From the sequence record PZ000615.1: a stretch of DNA of 51,960 bases. One strand, given 5' to 3'. The stretch's first letter is position 1; every line of letters begins with the position of its first letter. The position numbers and the translations under genes were made by a program. Under the pieces are notes generated by a model. The model worked only from the letters and a program-made list of their open reading frames with translations. It was not told where the DNA came from and searched no databases. This DNA is from a phage. Of the stretch, positions 2,934 to 48,502 are shown one piece after another.

Positions 2934-2960
2934 CATCTCAACTTAAACAGGAGATTGATT

Positions 2961-3695
2961 ATGAAAGACGTTGCAGACAAAGATACTCACGACGCTTTTG
3001 TCTCATTTGAGCAGATTGAGCGCGAAAACTTCATTACCAACGCGCTTGTTCCTGGGTGCGGTCATTATTCAGCAGTCAAGCCGGATACTTACTACCAGGT
3101 AACTGGCAACCGCTACGCCGGAAGCAAGACACCTGACATCGTTCGTGACCTTTGGGCTACAGATCCAGAAGTGATTGAGTTCATGGAGAAGCGTTTCGGC
3201 AAGTATGATCTTGACGCGGCGGCAAGCGAACAAAACGCGGTCTGTGAAAAGTTCTACGACGAAAAGACCGACTGCCTGAAACGCTGGTGGGGCAAGAACA
3301 AACACGTTTGGCTTAACCCTCCGTACTCACATCCGGACGTCTTTGTCAAAAAGGCAATTGAGCAGATGGAGCATGGAAACCAGATTGACATGCTGCTGCC
3401 TGGTGACAACTCAACCGCATGGTTTGCCGAAGCGCGTCGGAATGCTGCTGAGATTATCTGGATCGAGGGAGATATTGAAACCGACATCGACGGAACTGAG
3501 TACGCCCGAACCGGACGACTTTCTTTCATCTCGGCTCTCACCGGAAAGCCAGTTGACGGAAACAACAAAGGCTCTGTGATCTTTATCATGCGAGAGCTGA
3601 AAGAAGGTGAGAAACAGAAAACTCACTACATCCCAATTACTGAAATTTGCCCAGGCGTGAGCCGCAAGCGTGCTAAAAAACGGAGCGTAAAATAA
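2961..3695 (+). CDS. dam: DNA N6-adenine methyltransferase (phage Dam type)
   Basis: Track ORF 2955..3695 starts at TTG; ATG at 2961 preceded by CAGGAG; catalytic motif WLNPPYSH (NPPY). Confidence 0.8.
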   Translation: MKDVADKDTHDAFVSFEQIERENFITNALVPGCGHYSAVKPDTYYQVTGNRYAGSKTPDIVRDLWATDPEVIEFMEKRFGKYDLDAAASEQNAVCEKFYDEKTDCLKRWWGKNKHVWLNPPYSHPDVFVKKAIEQMEHGNQIDMLLPGDNSTAWFAEARRNAAEIIWIEGDIETDIDGTEYARTGRLSFISALTGKPVDGNNKGSVIFIMRELKEGEKQKTHYIPITEICPGVSRKRAKKRSVK

Positions 3696-10610: not shown

Positions 10611-11027
10611 TTACAAATATTTCGCTTCAAAAGTTGTTCCGTCAGCAATGCTAAAACCTACATCCTCGCGGTACAGGTTCCAGGGGCAACCGTCCTCATC
10701 AAAGATCAGACCAGCCACACCGCCAAGCGCTCGACCGGAATCCACCTGGTAACGCTTGCCAACCTTAAATGATTTCTTCATTGGGTTTTTGTGATCAAGC
10801 GACATGCACTTGAGGGTTTTGGTTTTCAGCTCAACGAACGTTGCAGCAACGACGCCATTACTTGAGATGAAGATTTCACCACTCACGCCAACCGACAGGA
10901 CAATCTTTTCCTTGCCCTTGCCAACGGTCACATTACCCTCGTCATCAACCTTTGCCTTTACCATATGGTTAGCGTTAAAAGCTTTGGTCAGTGACATTGT
11001 GCATTTCAGTTTGATTGATTTAGACAT
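10611..11027 (-). CDS. Hypothetical protein
   Basis: Track ORF. Confidence 0.5.
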   Translation of the reverse strand: MSKSIKLKCTMSLTKAFNANHMVKAKVDDEGNVTVGKGKEKIVLSVGVSGEIFISSNGVVAATFVELKTKTLKCMSLDHKNPMKKSFKVGKRYQVDSGRALGGVAGLIFDEDGCPWNLYREDVGFSIADGTTFEAKYL

Positions 11028-11236: not shown

Positions 11237-11281
11237 AATATAACAAAACCCGCCGGAGCGGGTTTATCAAAAAGTGCTATT
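11237..11281 (-). promoter_or_regulatory. Promoter-like cassette (minus orientation) overlapping terminator hairpin
   Basis: Minus strand AATAGCACTTTTTGATAAA, hairpin CCCGCTCCGGCGGG in spacer, TATATT 22 nt after TTGATA; upstream of small membrane ORF. Confidence 0.35.
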
Positions 11282-11960
11282 TTCGATTAGCCTGGAAAAC
11301 TGCACGAGCGAAACCGCGAGGTGTGAGTGACCGTAACTGCTTGGTCTTTGATGACTTGCCTCCGAGGAACTTCCATCCCCAGAAGAACCAGACACCCTCA
11401 TCTTTAGGCAGTTCCATCTTAACTGGCTCCTTGAACCCGTTACCGCACCAGATACAGGTTTTCTTTGTGTACCCATCTCGCAACGGCATTTTAGGATGCC
11501 AGGAACCCTCATCAGCTCCTACGTAATATCCGAAATCGCGAGGGTGGAAATAAAAGTTCGGCTTGCCTAACTTGTCCTCGTTCGACATCTTCCCTACAGG
11601 ATTCTCAATCATCCATGGAATATCAAGTTCCTGGCCTATGTTCTTAACCACTTTCGCACACTCAAGAGCGTAAGCCATTTCATCCTCCTCGCGGAAGTGC
11701 TTAGCGCCGGAATGAGCAAACAGCGTGCAATCAGGGAACCCAAAGATGATGTCAGGGCGCGGAATGCCAAGCAGATCACACTTGATAAGAAAATCCTTAT
11801 CGATCCACATATTGACGTAACGAACCAGAGGGTGATTCATCTTCACGGCGTACTCACCATGATTTCCAGAGTCGGCGTTGAAGCAATACACCGTGTGACC
11901 ATGCTCAGCCCAAGGCAACCCCATAATGCCGGATCCGTCAAAAAGCGACCATACAATCAT
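11277..11960 (-). CDS. Compact DNA cytosine-C5 methyltransferase-like protein
   Basis: Motif I SLFDGSG (FxGxG), motif IV GFPDCTLFAHSG (catalytic Cys), motif VI WMIENPVG (ENV); only 227 aa; stop codon TAG lies inside promoter element copy. Confidence 0.55.
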   Translation of the reverse strand: MIVWSLFDGSGIMGLPWAEHGHTVYCFNADSGNHGEYAVKMNHPLVRYVNMWIDKDFLIKCDLLGIPRPDIIFGFPDCTLFAHSGAKHFREEDEMAYALECAKVVKNIGQELDIPWMIENPVGKMSNEDKLGKPNFYFHPRDFGYYVGADEGSWHPKMPLRDGYTKKTCIWCGNGFKEPVKMELPKDEGVWFFWGWKFLGGKSSKTKQLRSLTPRGFARAVFQANRK

Positions 11961-11969
11961 CTCACCACC

Positions 11970-12206
11970 TCACCAAAAAGGAACACATTCTTTGCAAGCG
12001 CCCGTCAACCTGCACTCGTCGTTACAATACGTCATGCCGTCATCGGCAACCATCGTCGGAACTACAGCTCCGCTCTCTGCGATCACATCCATATCACCAA
12101 GAGCGTCATCAAGCGTGATCTCTTGCGTTGCTACCTTCTCAGCCCACTCCGGATCTAATCCAGCCTTGCGAGCTTCATAATAACGGAATCTCTCTGAACG
12201 GTTCAT
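11970..12206 (-). CDS. Hypothetical protein
   Basis: Track ORF. Confidence 0.45.
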   Translation of the reverse strand: MNRSERFRYYEARKAGLDPEWAEKVATQEITLDDALGDMDVIAESGAVVPTMVADDGMTYCNDECRLTGACKECVPFW

Positions 12207-16069: not shown

Positions 16070-16212
16070 TGATACATATCGGATGGTTGGTAAACGGGAC
16101 GTTCTACCCTGCTAGCGAGGCTAAGCGGGTAGACATGATCAGAGAGTTCAGGGGCGACAAGGTCGACATCGTCGAGGTTTATGCGGAGCGTTATCCATGC
16201 GTAAAATACTGA
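16069..16212 (+). CDS. Small hypothetical protein (47 aa), uncertain
   Basis: ATG overlapping upstream stop, GGAGA SD; overlaps start of next gene. Confidence 0.25.
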   Translation: MIHIGWLVNGTFYPASEAKRVDMIREFRGDKVDIVEVYAERYPCVKY

Positions 16213-16712
16213 TGGTGGCCTCATACGTGGGGCTGTTCACCCTGGCAAACGTGAACGTCGCTATGTTCGGAGTGTGGGTTACACCGTTCAACGCGCTATT
16301 CATTATTGCTGCTGATATGGTGATACGCGACAGAATCCAGTATGACGGCGGAGCGCTTGTTGCAATATTCGCCTCACTGCTTGCTGGTTCTGCAACAATA
16401 GCCATAGTTCCGGATGCAGGTCGAATAGCCATAGCGTCAAGCTTGTCCGTTGTCCTTGCTGGCCTTGCCTCTGCTGTTGCATTTAGGTTGAGGCGTGGGG
16501 ATTTCTACAGAAAGTCATATCAGGCAAATGTGATCGCTGCTGCTGTTGACTCAATCGCTTTCCCTGTGATAGCGTTCGGCTCGGTCATGATGTATGTGAC
16601 ACTCGCGCAGTTTGCAGCCAAAGTCATTGGCGCTTCTGTCATACTCTACTTAATGAAAAGGTGTTTCAATAATGACAGTTCACTTTCACGGCTCTCCAAT
16701 AACGGGCGGTAA
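16197..16712 (+). CDS. YhhQ/VUT-family-like integral membrane protein (putative queuosine-precursor transporter)
   Basis: Multi-pass hydrophobic protein; segments FNALFIIAADMVIRDRI, AFRLRRGDFYRKSYQANVIAAAVDSIAFPVIAF and QFAAKVIGASVILYLM align by eye with recalled E. coli YhhQ; alternative start 16212. Confidence 0.55.
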   Translation: MRKILMVASYVGLFTLANVNVAMFGVWVTPFNALFIIAADMVIRDRIQYDGGALVAIFASLLAGSATIAIVPDAGRIAIASSLSVVLAGLASAVAFRLRRGDFYRKSYQANVIAAAVDSIAFPVIAFGSVMMYVTLAQFAAKVIGASVILYLMKRCFNNDSSLSRLSNNGR

Positions 16713-16719
16713 GGGTGAT

Positions 16720-17493
16720 ATGATGGCTCGCGTTGCATATCGCGGCGCGGGTGCATTCGTATCTTACGCTCACCCAAAGCAGATCAACATGACCCTTGAG
16801 GTTGCTGACGCTGTATGCATAGACAACGGCGCATTCTCAAAGAAGAATACCGGACGCGAGACGGATTGGAACGGGTTTTACAACGACTTTCTCCCAAGGT
16901 TTATCGACCATCCGAAACTCAGATTCTTTGTTATTCCGGATGACATAAGCGGAGACGACCAGGAGAACGACAGGCTTATCCGTGAGCTACCAGCGCACCT
17001 TAAACACAAAGGCGCTCCGGTATGGCACTTGCACGAGAGCATAGATCGCCTTGTTCACCTGGCTAACGAGTGGGAGTATGTATGTCTTGGCTCATCAGGA
17101 GAATACTACTCAATCCGATCCCCTAAGTGGCGAGCAAGGATGGATGAGGCATTCAACGCTCTGATCTCTCGCGGGTATTCTGCTAAGCTTCACGGCCTGA
17201 GGATGCTGGATGGTCGAGTTCTTGGCAATTATCCACTTGACCAGGCCGACTCAACCAATATCGCCATTAATGCGCCAAAGTGGTTATGCAAGCACGTGCA
17301 GATGACTATAGAGGCTTGCCGGATGCAGACGCATTTCAGTAAGTGGATTGACACAACAGATCCGAAGGTAGCTCTTGATAACCTGATCTCTGCCGGAGGA
17401 ACTAAAGAGCAAATGCTATCTCAGAGGTGCGCAATCCTGAAATCGTGCATTGAGTCAGTCAAACCTCCGCATAAGTCTGACTGGTTAAAATAG
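16720..17493 (+). CDS. TGT-fold protein, putative DpdA-like DNA transglycosylase (tentative)
   Basis: Track ORF 16672..17493; probable ATG 16720 after AGGGTGA; CIDNGAF resembles TGT DSGGFQ catalytic-Asp motif, YVCLGSSGEY resembles TGT YAVGGLAVGE; no zinc CxCxxC..H motif; adjacent to YhhQ-like gene. Confidence 0.4.
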   Translation: MMARVAYRGAGAFVSYAHPKQINMTLEVADAVCIDNGAFSKKNTGRETDWNGFYNDFLPRFIDHPKLRFFVIPDDISGDDQENDRLIRELPAHLKHKGAPVWHLHESIDRLVHLANEWEYVCLGSSGEYYSIRSPKWRARMDEAFNALISRGYSAKLHGLRMLDGRVLGNYPLDQADSTNIAINAPKWLCKHVQMTIEACRMQTHFSKWIDTTDPKVALDNLISAGGTKEQMLSQRCAILKSCIESVKPPHKSDWLK

Positions 17494-22066: not shown

Positions 22067-22795
22067 ATGAAATTATCACTCAAAGCCATCGCAACCAATC
22101 GCATCAACGGATCTGTAACCGCGTTCAAGGTGTACCCAGTGTTAAATGACATGCTGGCAAGCCTGACGGATTCCGGATACTGGTTCATCAACGATAATGG
22201 TGAGAAGCAGTTCGCACACAAAGGAATCGTTCGCGACGGTTTTAGCGATCCGAAAAAGCAATACAGTTTTGACCTTTGTTTGCAGGTCAAAACGCTGGAG
22301 GAAACTATAAAGAGTCAGATTGACAAGTCTATCCGGTATTCTTTAAAGCCAGGTGGTGATTTATACGGGGCTTTGCGTGGAGGATTCCAAGGCGGCGGAT
22401 ATGTTCGGGATTTTTCATTCAGCAATGCATCTAACGCGGCGGCAAGTGCAGTCAAGGAAATGCAATCTGTTTGCGGAATCATTGGTGACGGCACTATCAA
22501 AGTCAAGATCGGTGACTTGCGCAGCGATGAGAAAAAGGAGCGTGACGCGGCTGTTGCTGAACTTGATAAGCATCTTCCAGCATACCGACGTTCTGATAAA
22601 GGGTTTGGTCTGGTTGAAAGCATTGAGTGGATCGGCAAGCTTAACGCGGCTCACAGTTCAGACTGTCAGAAATATGAGGGTATACTTGAAGATCTTATGG
22701 AGGCGTTCGACATTCGCACCATTGACGGACTCAAGCATTTTGCCTCGAACCTGAAGCGCTCGTCTGAAATTATCGACGCTGTTCGCAAGAAATAG
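22067..22795 (+). CDS. Hypothetical protein (242 aa)
   Basis: Track ORF; GAGGAATGAAC SD; stop TAG inside promoter element. Confidence 0.5.
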   Translation: MKLSLKAIATNRINGSVTAFKVYPVLNDMLASLTDSGYWFINDNGEKQFAHKGIVRDGFSDPKKQYSFDLCLQVKTLEETIKSQIDKSIRYSLKPGGDLYGALRGGFQGGGYVRDFSFSNASNAAASAVKEMQSVCGIIGDGTIKVKIGDLRSDEKKERDAAVAELDKHLPAYRRSDKGFGLVESIEWIGKLNAAHSSDCQKYEGILEDLMEAFDIRTIDGLKHFASNLKRSSEIIDAVRKK

Positions 22796-24386: not shown

Positions 24387-24572
24387 ATGCTCTATGACGT
24401 CAAAATCACAATTCGCAAGCTAGGCCGAGCGTGCGCCACTTGCAAGCAAGATCTTGTTGGTCAGTTTGAAGCTGACTCAGCAGAGGGAGCGGTTAAGGCC
24501 GCGAAAGATAGCGTGAGCGTCGATTGGGATACTCACCAGGCGTTAATTAACTATGTAAGGAAATCATCATGA
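24387..24572 (+). CDS. Hypothetical protein
   Basis: Track ORF, GAGGAG SD. Confidence 0.45.
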   Translation: MLYDVKITIRKLGRACATCKQDLVGQFEADSAEGAVKAAKDSVSVDWDTHQALINYVRKSS

Positions 24573-24934
24573 TCACAACTATCATCATGTGTTTAATCTT
24601 CTTTGTTTTGGGTGGCGGCTTTACGTTCGTCGTAATTGCGGCTGGTGTTACTGAGTGCGCCAAGGATGGAATCCTTGCGGCGGCTTTCTACTCAGAGAAG
24701 CGCAAGCGTTGGGAGGTGATCGGCAATTATATGACCGTCTCCGGCAAGATCGGCAATATCCTAAAATCAGAAAATGCAGCCGAAAAGCTACACTACGTTG
24801 ACCTTGATCCTAAACCCAAGGAAAACAAAGAGCCGCTTAGCAAGCGATTCAAGGTGAAGTTAGGCATCAAGCGATCTGGCAAGGGCTGGCGACTCGATAA
24901 AAATAAGTCTGCCAACTTCAAACAAAGTGAATAA
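24569..24934 (+). CDS. Membrane-anchored hypothetical protein
   Basis: N-terminal TM IIMCLIFFVLGGGFTFVVIAAGV; followed by terminator. Confidence 0.45.
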   Translation: MITTIIMCLIFFVLGGGFTFVVIAAGVTECAKDGILAAAFYSEKRKRWEVIGNYMTVSGKIGNILKSENAAEKLHYVDLDPKPKENKEPLSKRFKVKLGIKRSGKGWRLDKNKSANFKQSE

Positions 24935-24940
24935 AAACTA

Positions 24941-24963
24941 ACCCGCTACGGCGGGTTTTTTTT
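24941..24963 (+). terminator. Rho-independent terminator closing the early array
   Basis: CCCGC-TACG-GCGGG followed by T8. Confidence 0.6.
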
Positions 24964-24974
24964 CGTCTGTAATC

Positions 24975-24983
24975 TGGTATAAT
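24975..24983 (+). promoter_or_regulatory. Extended -10 promoter element (TGgTATAAT) upstream of terminase genes
   Basis: TGGTATAAT immediately after terminator T-tract, ~25 nt upstream of terminase small subunit start; no palindromic element. Confidence 0.35.
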
Positions 24984-25008
24984 CAGGCGACCAACAGAGG
25001 AGCGTAAA

Positions 25009-25539
25009 ATGAAAGACCAACGCAGCGCGAACGAGCGCATTACAGAGCGCGGCAACTTCAAAGAGTTGTACCGCAAAAAGTACGGTGACGTGATCTCCCG
25101 AACCAAGATCTTAACTCCTGAGCAGCTTTTTGATATGGGTGTCGCCTATTTCGAGTGGGCTGAGGCGAACCACATCAAGGCGGCTGAAACTGCATCCTTC
25201 CAGGGTGAGGTTAGCGAGAGCCTGGTTCACAAGGTGCGAGTGTTCACCCTCAACGGGTTTGCCCTGTATGCCGGATGCACGCTCAACACTCTCAACCGAT
25301 ACAGATCCGAACCAGCATACGCTGAGGTGATGGAGTTCATTGACTCGGTCGTGTATGAGCAGAAATTCCAGCTAGCGGCTAACGGCATCGTTAACCCTGG
25401 CTTTATTGGCAAAGATCTTGGCATCGACAAACCAGCAAACATCACCGTCGAAACCATTTCCAGCTCTCAGAGCAGCGCTATCGGAACGGTTGAGCAGCAA
25501 ATGGAACAGGCAGTTTCTAACGTTCTTGACAGCCTGTAA
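25009..25539 (+). CDS. Putative terminase small subunit
   Basis: Position immediately upstream of terminase large subunit, size 176 aa, follows terminator plus extended -10 promoter. Confidence 0.5.
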   Translation: MKDQRSANERITERGNFKELYRKKYGDVISRTKILTPEQLFDMGVAYFEWAEANHIKAAETASFQGEVSESLVHKVRVFTLNGFALYAGCTLNTLNRYRSEPAYAEVMEFIDSVVYEQKFQLAANGIVNPGFIGKDLGIDKPANITVETISSSQSSAIGTVEQQMEQAVSNVLDSL

Positions 25540-46049: not shown

Positions 46050-48029
46050 ATGGCAATTTATAGAAAAGGTGAGGCATCACTCGCGGCAGACGGTACTGTT
46101 ACCGGATACGGTACGAACTGGAAAGATCAGCTTGCTCTGGTTCGAATCGGCGCGACCGTCGTATTCCTGACTGGTAACGCAATTAGCGCTATCGGGACGG
46201 TATCGGCTATCGTGTCTGAAACTCAACTTCAAACCATTCAGACTGACGGCGCTGTCGTTGCCCGTGGTAAGTATTTCATCCTACTGCATGACTCGCTGAC
46301 GGTTGACGGCCTGGCGCAAAACGTTGCTGAGACACTCCGTTATTATCAGTCACAAGAAACTGAGATTGCTGACGCGGTTGATTATTTCAGAACTTTCGAC
46401 TGGGAGAAGTTTGAGAAGATCGCGACATCGGTTAAGACCAGCGCGGCGGCTGCTAAGGTTTCAGAAACCAACGCCAAAACATCAGAGACGAACGCCAAGG
46501 CTAGCGAGAATGCGTCACTGCAAAGCAAGAACTCGGCGGCAGGTTCAGCTACGGCAGCAAAAACCAGTGAGACTAACGCAAAGACGTCTGAGACTCGCTC
46601 AAAGACTTCAGAGACTAACTCTGCTGCATCGGCTGTAACGGCAACCAACGAGGCAGACCGAGCCAAGCGTGAAGCTGATCGCGCTGCGGCGGCTAACCCT
46701 GACAACGCGTTACTGAAAGCGAATAACCTGAGTGACGTTCCGGATAAGGCGGCTGCAAGGGCTAACCTTCAAATCGATAGATTTAACCAAGACTCAACAA
46801 CTGAGACAAGGATTCTGTCTGGTGATAAGTCTCAGGCTATGATTGTGTCAACTGGTTCCACGTGGGGAGTGTACAGGTTTGGATCTGGTTGGGTTCCTCT
46901 AGAGATTGCTCAGGGCGGAACCGGAGCAAGCAATGCAGAAGGGGCAAGGAAGAGCTTGCAGTTAAGTGGTGATGACTACGTCAACTTTAATGGATTATCT
47001 TTGAAAAACCAGTTAACGATGAGTAGCAACGGGCAGCCAATTTCACCAACGCTGCTTACAAGGGTGTTTGATGCAAGTGGAAGCAACCTTCTCGGTTCTG
47101 CTGAATTGAGAGCTAACTCAAATGGTAACGTAGAACTCGTTAATAGGATTTCTGGATCGCCAAGGGCGCTGGCGCTATTCCCTGATGGTTCTGTTGCTTT
47201 TTCATCGTTTAATGGCAGATTCATAAGTCAAGGCATGGGTCTTGGGGTCGGTCGAGATATTTCTACTGGTTACGTACTCAATGCAATGAAGGATGTCATC
47301 AACAACGGAGAAACTCAGGCGTTCAGGGTTACTGGGACTGGTGGCATGGTTATTGGTGGAGTTAACTTCCAATATGCACCTTCAATGTCATTCCATTCTG
47401 GAGATGTAGTAGGGGCTTTGTGGGTTGACTACAGGACTGGTAACGCAATGACTGTTTCCGGAACAAGGTCATCTATACTTGGTAACACGACTCCAAATCA
47501 GAACGTGTTATGGGGTACTGCTAACACAACTGTTGACGCTAACGGATTTTTGAAAAGGGCATCACCAATAGTCAAGATTATGAGTAATTCATTTGAGACT
47601 AATGAAGAGTCCGAGGGCGTTTTAGTAACAAGGGTTGGAGTTGGTGAATATCTTGTTTCGGGATGTCTTGGGCTTCATTCAGATCTTGCGTGGGGTGGCG
47701 TAGATGGAGGATTTGAAGTTCCAAAAGACAGGAATGGACAGAACAAGATATGGGTTGACTATGACATGAAAGAGGATGGTTCAATTCTGGTTAAAACCTA
47801 CCACAGGGAGTATAAAGACGTTCCTGAGTTCGCCAAAAACAAGAAGGATGGTTTTGAGGATGGTCAGCCTATTGATATCCCATATGACTCATTCTTAAGC
47901 ATTCGAGTTGAAATGCCGGAGGACAGCGCATACAACAAGAGAATTAGGGAGGCCGAATCAGATGTAAGAAGCAACGCAAACAGGGAATGGTGGAGTAAAA
48001 TACACGAAACTGGTTGCGAGGAGGAATAA
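46050..48029 (+). CDS. Tail fibre protein
   Basis: ATG 46050; N-terminal repeated KTSETNAK / Ala-Ser-Thr-rich collar motif typical of phage tail fibres; divergent C-terminal domain. Confidence 0.7.
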
Positions 48030-48059
48030 AAAAAGGAGCCGTAAGGCTCCTTTTCTTTT
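48027..48059. terminator. Bidirectional terminator between convergent tail fibre and ssb genes
   Basis: A-run, GGAGCC-GTAA-GGCTCC, T-run; same stem sequence as terminator at 8382. Confidence 0.6.
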
Positions 48060-48061
48060 GC

Positions 48062-48502
48062 TTAGAATGGAATATCGTCGTCGAAATCCATCGGTGGGCT
48101 GTTTTGTGGTTTATTGCTTTGCTGCTGTTGTTGTCGTGGCTGTTGATTTCCTTTTGGCTGCTGAGGCTCACCCCATGCGCCTTGTTGCTGCTGCTGAGAT
48201 CGCTGGCTGTAGATTAGTTGAGCAAATCCGGCTGGCTGCAACGTTACGTAGGTTGTTCCGTTGTGCTCGCGAATGACTGGCTTGAGCTGATCGCACTGCA
48301 CAGAGATTGTTTTTCCTAGCTGGAACGCATCGCGATACCAGTTCATCAGGCCGTCTGTTTTCGCGTTGAAAAAGAACGTGTAGTTAGTATACTCTCGCGT
48401 CCCTTCACGGTTCTTGTACGACTCGCTAAGCTCAATGATGAATGTCGTTTCGTTGTGGATGCGCGGCTCTTTGCGGATCTCTCCGGTGATAATATGAGGC
48501 AT
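48062..48502 (-). CDS. ssb: Single-stranded DNA-binding protein
   Basis: OB-fold-sized N-terminus, Gln/Pro-rich linker, acidic C-terminal tail DFDDDIPF. Confidence 0.8.
   Translation of the reverse strand: MPHIITGEIRKEPRIHNETTFIIELSESYKNREGTREYTNYTFFFNAKTDGLMNWYRDAFQLGKTISVQCDQLKPVIREHNGTTYVTLQPAGFAQLIYSQRSQQQQQGAWGEPQQPKGNQQPRQQQQQSNKPQNSPPMDFDDDIPF

Follow-up and report, generated by a model that had tools for sequence, protein, structure and literature searches.

In phage K42, which is 95% identical to KarlJaspers (Bas06), the mutants that escape retron Ec86 (Eco1) all disrupt a 711-bp "Dcm-like" gene (bioRxiv 10.1101/2023.08.16.553469). Expression of K42 Dcm raises 5-methylcytosine (5mC) on the multicopy single-stranded DNA (msDNA), as measured by liquid chromatography-mass spectrometry, and triggers the retron, and a C82A/E128A/K175A/K176A mutant is inactive (bioRxiv 10.1101/2023.08.16.553469). 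For Pantoea phage AAS23 (Sauletekiovirus), BLASTP found no conserved domain in gp52 and HHpred linked the protein with 99.7% probability to the Dcm structure 3ME5; the authors reported Dam- and Dcm-methylated virion DNA after MboI and EcoRII digestion, the DNA being resistant to EcoRII. The virion DNA of Klebsiella phage KP36 (Webervirus), with 155 predicted EcoRII (CCWGG) sites, likewise gave no EcoRII bands, and the authors of that 2013 paper, who found no cytosine methyltransferase gene, credited the methylation to host Dcm. The homolog in phage TLS has long borne the gene name dcm. Here we describe a compact member of this family, encoded on the minus strand of sequence record PZ000615.1. 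The window, that is the whole stretch of 51,960 nucleotides that was analyzed, is a complete T1-like phage genome, whose DNA is 85-88% identical to that of Enterobacter phages Ec_L1 and Phc (Drexlerviridae, Eclunavirus).

We propose that this gene encodes an active orphan DNA cytosine-C5 methyltransferase (C5-MTase), dependent on S-adenosylmethionine (SAM), of a compact "phage Dcm" family to which we assign TLS Dcm, K42/KarlJaspers Dcm, AAS23 gp52 and KP36_073. To this reading, including the C5-methyltransferase activity of the protein, we give a probability of about 80%. Homology, conserved catalytic residues, fold, purifying selection and orphan context were observed for the protein itself; 5mC formation and EcoRII resistance come from the literature and concern homologs only. 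The family is already known, widespread and partly characterised, and the identification of the gene is correct but ordinary.

Reality of the Gene and Family Assignment

The open reading frame (ORF) starts with ATG and runs over 227 codons to a TAG stop, exactly as an earlier note on this DNA, made from the letters alone, had claimed (Table 1). By tblastn, the gene is present in 1,485 of 50,697 phage records, nearly always at full length, and a profile search over 1.84 billion representatives gave 1,830 clusters at 50% identity, nearly all of 200-260 amino acids (aa). Comparison with the Ec_L1 ortholog gave a ratio of nonsynonymous to synonymous substitution rates (dN/dS) of 0.05, at a dS of about 1.0, which points to strong purifying selection. 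Because of these phage records, these clusters and this low dN/dS, the ORF is to be regarded as a genuine gene and not as a chance reading frame.

The earlier note had called the product C5-cytosine-methyltransferase-like, and this holds: the protein matches PHROG 757, its fold matches point to the same class, it shares 43% identity with K42/KarlJaspers Dcm, and the four residues mutated in K42 Dcm are conserved. The PHROG match (phrog_757, "DNA methyltransferase", E = 2.1e-76) places residues 1-226 on profile positions 15-219 of 247. A profile search against C5 methyltransferase families, which the note had put forward as a check, was thus positive for PHROG 757 and empty for Pfam, NCBIfam and PDB sequences. 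With the 227-aa protein as query, Pfam returned no match even at E <= 10, so that the curated threshold of PF00145 was not reached; NCBIfam and phmmer against PDB sequences returned no match either, and a 40-sequence family profile searched against PDB sequences gave chance matches only (fibronectin-binding protein, REV1; E about 1). These empty searches do not refute methyltransferase homology. Weak matches to PF00145 were found for 11 of 40 relatives, one of which (P0043) passes with 27.3 against 22 bits, and they always span profile positions 3-100 of 324, corresponding to motifs I-IV.

Pairwise identity to the window protein is 43% for KarlJaspers Dcm (E = 2e-60), 44% for AAS23 gp52 (E = 8e-62), 46% for TLS dcm (tblastn) and 62% for KP36_073 (E = 9e-107). 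The KarlJaspers gene, bas06_0055, has 711 bp and a syntenic position; through it, residues C82, E128, K175 and K176 of K42 Dcm align exactly with C78, E119, K166 and K167 of the window protein, so that all four mutated residues are kept. The K42/KarlJaspers enzyme resembles ours in length (236 vs. 227 aa), in identity over the full length, in belonging to a Drexlerviridae genome and in lying upstream of a DUF3987 helicase gene, but it has FPPCT where the window protein has FPDCT, and several small indels separate the two. AAS23 gp52 also keeps Pro-Cys and comes from a phage of a different host. KP36_073 (47552..48244, minus strand, of JF501022), with FPSCT, lacks the Pro before Cys like the window protein, again in a phage of a different host.

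The family is missed by Pfam, NCBIfam and PDB sequence searches, and many of its copies are labelled "hypothetical protein", including that of Phc (93% identical) and KP36_073. It is for this reason that the EcoRII resistance of KP36 DNA was credited to host Dcm, an attribution that probably needs revising.

The predicted structure has the class I methyltransferase fold and is nearest to C5-cytosine methyltransferases. An enzyme of this kind might act on RNA instead of DNA, forming 5-methylcytosine in transfer RNA as DNMT2 does. We regard this as most improbable, as the DNA methyltransferases 3g7u, DNMT3B, MET1 and DNMT1 score higher in the fold matches, the closest tested homolog methylates DNA (msDNA), and the DNAs of phages bearing the family resist EcoRII. 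Identity to the catalytic domains of DNMT3A and DNMT3B is only 11-16%; these eukaryotic enzymes act on CpG and form oligomers with DNMT3L, and their catalytic domain is about 50 residues longer than the window protein.

Alignment of the family to M.HhaI, the reference sequence of which was confirmed to be identical to PDB 10mh_A, gave motif-level agreement in hhalign that is statistically weak. A repeat in which a profile of 127 family sequences was set against 120 homologs of HhaI was no stronger, owing to the high identity (more than 70%) of the HhaI set. An alignment to HhaI obtained with the -glob option was discarded as spurious.

Conserved Motifs and Catalytic Residues

The three motifs named in the earlier note were all recovered, SLFDGSG at residues 5-11, GFPDCTLFAHSG at residues 74-85 and IENPVG at residues 118-123. 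Conservation was counted in 127 divergent representatives of the family and, separately, among close relatives. The catalytic Cys78 is conserved in 125 of the 127 representatives and aligns with C81 of HhaI and C82 of K42 Dcm. Motif VI, where ENP stands for the usual ENV, is nearly invariant in the same set (E119 in 127, N120 in 123 and P121 in 126 of 127).

In motif I, residues D8, G9, S10 and G11 are invariant in close relatives, and the PF00145 matches of relatives include this motif. In the alignment of the 127 representatives, divergent members have Y, R, H or F instead of the middle Gly of the motif (G9), a column that could be an alignment artefact. Position 28 is Asp in 119 of the 127 representatives and Asn in the window protein and its subclade; the active K42 enzyme has the same Asn. 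Judging from positions 9 and 28, the SAM pocket may differ between subclades.

The motif VIII-like segment has Lys where the canonical R-x-R has Arg. Of the 127 representatives, at least 123 keep Y164, K166 and T168 (124 in the case of K166), and K167 is found in 58, with a further 28 having Arg at this place. The equivalence to motif VIII is based on spacing and on the DNMT3A superposition of the K42 authors, and not on a significant alignment. In motif IX, the residues R210, S211, T213, P214 and G216 are invariant in close relatives and conserved in at least 83% of the representatives, and the R-x3-P-x4-R spacing is the same as that of R272, P276 and R281 in HhaI. The segment is followed by only six residues (eight after R219), including N225, which is invariant in close relatives and present in 93 of 127 representatives.

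N225 is a candidate counterpart of N304 of HhaI, and this residue bears on the group that is transferred. In the phage enzyme CmoX, selectivity for carboxy-SAM (Cx-SAM) depends on the replacement of HhaI Asn304 by Arg and on linkage to cmoA and cmoY (PMC12783734). Transfer of a non-methyl group such as carboxymethyl by the window protein seems scarcely credible to us: the family keeps a conserved Asn (N225, which may correspond to HhaI N304), a scan of approximately 20 ORFs, which cover part of the genome, gave none that resembles cmoA or a ligase gene, the K42 homolog yields 5mC, and the unusual motif IV, discussed below, is a substitution of an ancestral Pro. Transfer of a methyl group is the reading that we retain.

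Table 1. Positions of the methyltransferase gene, its motifs and the other features discussed, numbered along the window.
Feature	Position	Strand	Basis and remarks
C5-cytosine DNA methyltransferase coding sequence, compact (predicted)	11277..11960	-	ORF list and sequence; 227 aa and TAG stop
Motif I, SAM-binding loop S5-L-F7-D-G9-S-G11 (F-x-G-x-G)	11928..11948	-	hhalign to HhaI F18-A-G-L-G22
Motif IV, catalytic loop G74-F-P-D77-C78-T-L-F-A-H-S-G85	11706..11741	-	Alignments; Cys78 codon 11727..11729
Motif VI, I118-E119-N-P-V-G123 (ENP for ENV)	11592..11609	-	Aligns with K42 E128; with HhaI E119 in weak hhalign
Motif VIII-like, Y164-T-K166-K167-T168	11457..11471	-	Alignment to K42 K175/K176; spacing
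Minimal target-recognition region, residues 169-209 (about 41 aa)	11334..11456	-	Motif spacing; putative DNA-recognition role
Motif IX, R210-S-L-T-P214-R-G-F-A-R219-A-V	11298..11333	-	Alignment and spacing
Shine-Dalgarno-like GAGGTGG	11965..11971	-	Read from sequence; putative function
Terminator-like hairpin	11246..11265	-	Pattern scan; 8-bp stem, 5 G-C pairs; putative function
Dam-family N6-adenine methyltransferase gene	2955..3695	+	PF05869, E = 2.6e-60; phrog_111, E = 4e-84
DpdA-like transglycosylase gene	16672..17493	+	phrog_887 "queuine tRNA-ribosyltransferase", E = 9.6e-71

Asp in Place of Pro in Motif IV

Among the signature residues of C5-MTases is the Pro of the Pro-Cys motif, and PROSITE PS00094 requires P-C. 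This Pro is absent from the window protein, in which Asp77 precedes the catalytic Cys. The earlier note had read the resulting P-D-C as an insertion in motif IV that could indicate altered chemistry, and on both points our results differ. The length of the motif is constant among relatives, with D, S, P, E and V replacing one another, and hhalign sets I-P-R-P-D-I-I-F-G-F-P-D-C-T-L without a gap on I-P-D-H-D-I-L-C-A-G-F-P-C-Q-A of HhaI, which puts C78 on Cys81 and D77 on Pro80. An insertion was therefore rejected; the difference is a Pro-to-Asp substitution, and nothing supports an altered chemistry.

At position 77, the 127 divergent representatives include 100 with P, 11 with E, 8 with V, 4 with D and 2 with S; among the 123 close relatives, the residue before the Cys is D in 93, S in 16, P in 13 and Q in 1. 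K42, AAS23 and TLS have Pro at the equivalent position and KP36 has Ser. From the counts in the divergent representatives and the gapless HhaI alignment, canonical Pro-Cys is the ancestral state, in which a subclade of enterobacterial phages has replaced the Pro. The Pro at this position is a signature residue and not the nucleophile, and the "invariant" Pro of the Pro-Cys motif is thus seen to tolerate Asp, Ser, Glu or Val in nature. We also considered whether Asp had undergone a "swap" from one to the other of residues 77 and 80 in the catalytic loop, and rejected this idea as there is no strict covariation. Residues 82-89 of the loop, after C78, have low predicted local distance difference test (pLDDT) values in the predicted model.

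Loss of the signature Pro to Asp, in a variant for which we found no assay, could mean that the protein is catalytically impaired and binds DNA or SAM in another role, such as that of a regulator or a decoy. This is very unlikely in our view, as all other catalytic and SAM-binding residues are invariant in the Asp subclade, the dN/dS is low, Ser, Glu and Val also occur at position 77 in an otherwise conserved family, and the Ser-variant phage KP36 has EcoRII-resistant DNA. Since the other key residues are invariant in the subclade, the gene is under strong purifying selection and the DNA of the Ser variant KP36 resists EcoRII, the Asp77 variant is probably active.

An active Asp77 variant could still differ in function from the Pro-Cys enzymes. 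The replacement, which prevails in the enterobacterial-phage subclade (93 of the 123 close relatives), might mark a functional shift, a proposal which we find doubtful. If it were true, the target cytosine or target sequence could have changed, or else the dynamics of the catalytic loop; with altered loop dynamics the enzyme would then protect phage DNA without methylation of msDNA, and so evade sensing by Ec86/Eco1.

Compactness and Target-Recognition Region

The earlier note had seen in the short length of the protein the sign of a minimal target-recognition domain, and the motif spacing supports it. Between motif anchors, 44 residues separate motif VIII from motif IX where M.HhaI has 107, and 8 residues instead of 46 follow motif IX, which leaves no separate motif X segment. 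At its N-terminus, the protein is 11 residues shorter than M.HhaI. The other spacings are close to those of M.HhaI (71 vs. 63 for I-IV, 41 vs. 38 for IV-VI, 47 vs. 46 for VI-VIII). The protein is thus unusually short for a C5-MTase because its target-recognition region is minimal, for which the predicted model gives one strand and short helices. Within its own family this size is typical: the median length is 226 aa, and the 227-aa protein falls in a class of about 215-260 aa.

With M.HhaI and E. coli Dcm/M.EcoRII, the window protein shares the fold class, the catalytic Cys and Glu, and the sequence and distances of motifs I, IV and VI; the motif VIII-like segment also lies at the distance expected, and the motif IX-like segment has the same internal spacing. 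However, these canonical C5-MTases are about 100 residues longer, have a target-recognition domain of 107 instead of 44 residues and contain a motif X segment. Also, the window protein differs from them by Asp for Pro, ENP for ENV and K-K-T for R-x-R, and by having no adjoining vsr or restriction gene.

With about 227 aa, the protein may be a candidate for a minimal C5-MTase scaffold in engineering. A bolder proposal, separate from that of a shift at residue 77 and in our opinion just as doubtful, is that the region of about 40 residues reads a 5-bp site; if so, this would be the smallest known sequence-specific DNA C5-MTase scaffold.

Site Avoidance and Target Specificity

The window genome contains 134 CCWGG sites for 117.5 expected, which ranks this sequence 83rd of 85 palindromes for avoidance (among the least avoided), and 289 sites of the Dam target GATC for 321 expected. 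Other palindromes are strongly avoided (observed/expected, O/E): CCSGG 0/34, GGWCC 1/29, GGSCC 0/14 and CAGCTG 0/14, to which GGCGCC (0/11), CTGCAG (0/10), CCGCGG (0/9) and GGCC (62/147) may be added. This pattern fits a genome in which CCWGG and GATC would be covered by methylation and the other sites purged by selection. The partial Ec_L1 locus has the same pattern of palindrome avoidance.

Across Drexlerviridae, the O/E of CCWGG is 1.00-1.35 in six genomes that bear the gene and 0.73 in AugustePiccard, which also bears it, vs. 0.83 in T1 and 0.78 in RTP, which do not; with only two negative genomes this is a weak trend, and we did not count it as evidence of specificity. For GATC, the Braunvirinae RTP and AugustePiccard, in which no Dam gene is annotated, strongly avoid the site (72/204 and 77/230), and the Dam-encoding relatives have O/E values of about 0.8-1.1. 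Avoidance of GATC thus tracks the absence of Dam, and the corresponding CCWGG/Dcm-like signal is much weaker. The Dcm-like gene of AugustePiccard (24418..25107, minus strand) lies by the tail-tip and lipoprotein region and not upstream of a DUF3987 helicase gene. The CCWGG O/E of this phage, close to that of its relative RTP without the gene, may reflect a recent acquisition.

On balance, CCWGG is somewhat favoured as the target of the window protein. The main competing reading is that the protein is an active C5-MTase of another specificity, which would modify not the inner C of CCWGG, as Dcm does, but the outer one, or else a site that is shorter or degenerate. Several observations bear on it. 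E. coli MG1655 is dcm+. In retron assays in this strain, msDNA carried little 5mC before expression of the phage enzyme, and up to that point the retron stayed silent (bioRxiv 10.1101/2023.08.16.553469). In view of this silence, the K42 enzyme must differ from host Dcm in target cytosine, in substrate preference (hairpin msDNA) or in activity level; it does something that host Dcm does not. The authors did not map its CCWGG specificity but took it over from host Dcm as an assumption, backed by mutation of the msDNA site only (bioRxiv 10.1101/2023.08.16.553469). A target-recognition domain reduced to 44 residues, and the CCWGG O/E of 0.73 in AugustePiccard in spite of its gene, would also agree with another specificity. 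However, mutation of either C of the CCTGG site in msDNA abolishes retron triggering and defence (bioRxiv 10.1101/2023.08.16.553469), the DNAs of KP36 and AAS23 resist EcoRII, and the contrast between spared CCWGG and purged CCSGG, GGWCC and GGSCC disfavours a broad specificity of the CCNGG or GGNCC type. We consider another specificity unlikely, though it deserves more weight than the other alternatives discussed here.

Proposed Mode of Action

For the preferred reading, an active phage Dcm, we propose the following mechanism by analogy with M.HhaI and DNMT3. The target cytosine would be flipped out of the helix, Cys78 would attack its C6, and Glu119 would protonate or hold N3/N4. The methyl group would then pass to C5 from SAM, bound by motif I and by acidic or polar residues at positions 28/30 and 54, and beta-elimination would free the enzyme. 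Lys166 and Lys167 are expected to replace the arginines of motif VIII, and the region of about 40 residues to read the DNA, with CCWGG as the likeliest target. During infection, replicating phage DNA would be methylated and in this way protected from restriction of the EcoRII type; as a side effect, it could be sensed by retron Ec86/Eco1. Activity of the Asp77 variant, a CCWGG target and a protective role are thus the parts of this scheme that we deduce for the window protein.

Some points weigh against this proposal. We found no assay of the window protein or of any Asp77 variant in the literature, and the two homologs with a biochemical link, those of K42 and AAS23, have canonical Pro-Cys. 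Host Dcm could account in part for the resistance of KP36 and AAS23 DNA to EcoRII. Also, the K42 assays were made in the dcm+ strain MG1655, so that the site, strand or efficiency of the phage enzyme may not be that of host Dcm. The CCWGG specificity of K42 Dcm does not come from methylome mapping (bioRxiv 10.1101/2023.08.16.553469).

If the proposal is right, phages bearing the gene are predicted to be shielded from EcoRII-type restriction and exposed to retron Ec86/Eco1. This prediction bears on the choice of therapeutic phages and of production hosts.

Genomic Context

Small ORFs form a cluster on the minus strand, and the methyltransferase gene is one of them; a DUF3987 helicase-like gene lies two genes downstream of it. 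Of the leftward early operon named in the earlier note, the sequence shows this leftward cluster. The same gene order at the DUF3987 helicase is found in Ec_L1, KarlJaspers, AAS23, KP36 and TLS. The two neighbouring ORFs (10611..11027 and 11970..12206) have no Pfam match and match only PHROGs of unknown function; by Pfam and PHROG, neither is a vsr or a cognate restriction endonuclease gene. The copies of the family in bacterial genomes sit in lambdoid prophages, with no restriction gene nearby. A restriction-modification context was therefore rejected, and the methyltransferase is an orphan enzyme.

The Shine-Dalgarno-like sequence, whose GAGG stands 7 nt 5' of the ATG, shares bases with the TGA stop codon that ends the preceding ORF (11970..12206). 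Directly 3' of the stop codon of the methyltransferase gene lies a G+C-rich, terminator-like hairpin, which might act within the leftward cluster as an attenuator or internal terminator, or else affect the stability of the RNA. KP36 has an annotated stem_loop at the equivalent place, downstream of KP36_073 (47515..47536 of JF501022).

The coexistence of the methyltransferase gene with Dam and DpdA-like genes, also claimed in the earlier note, is confirmed by the matches to PF05869 and phrog_887 (Table 1), and the gene content could serve three kinds of DNA modification. The DpdA-like protein had no Pfam match and no PDB sequence match. Elsewhere on the plus strand, searches of Pfam and PHROG at the thresholds applied left a 242-aa ORF (22067..22795) without a match. 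The DpdA-like gene is preceded and overlapped by a 171-aa ORF (16197..16712, plus strand) with a sub-threshold match (E = 0.0024) to PF02592 Vut_1, the family of YhhQ-type queuosine-precursor transporters. This Vut_1-like ORF and the DpdA-like gene together suggest a 7-deazaguanine modification of the DNA, made from an imported or host-made precursor.

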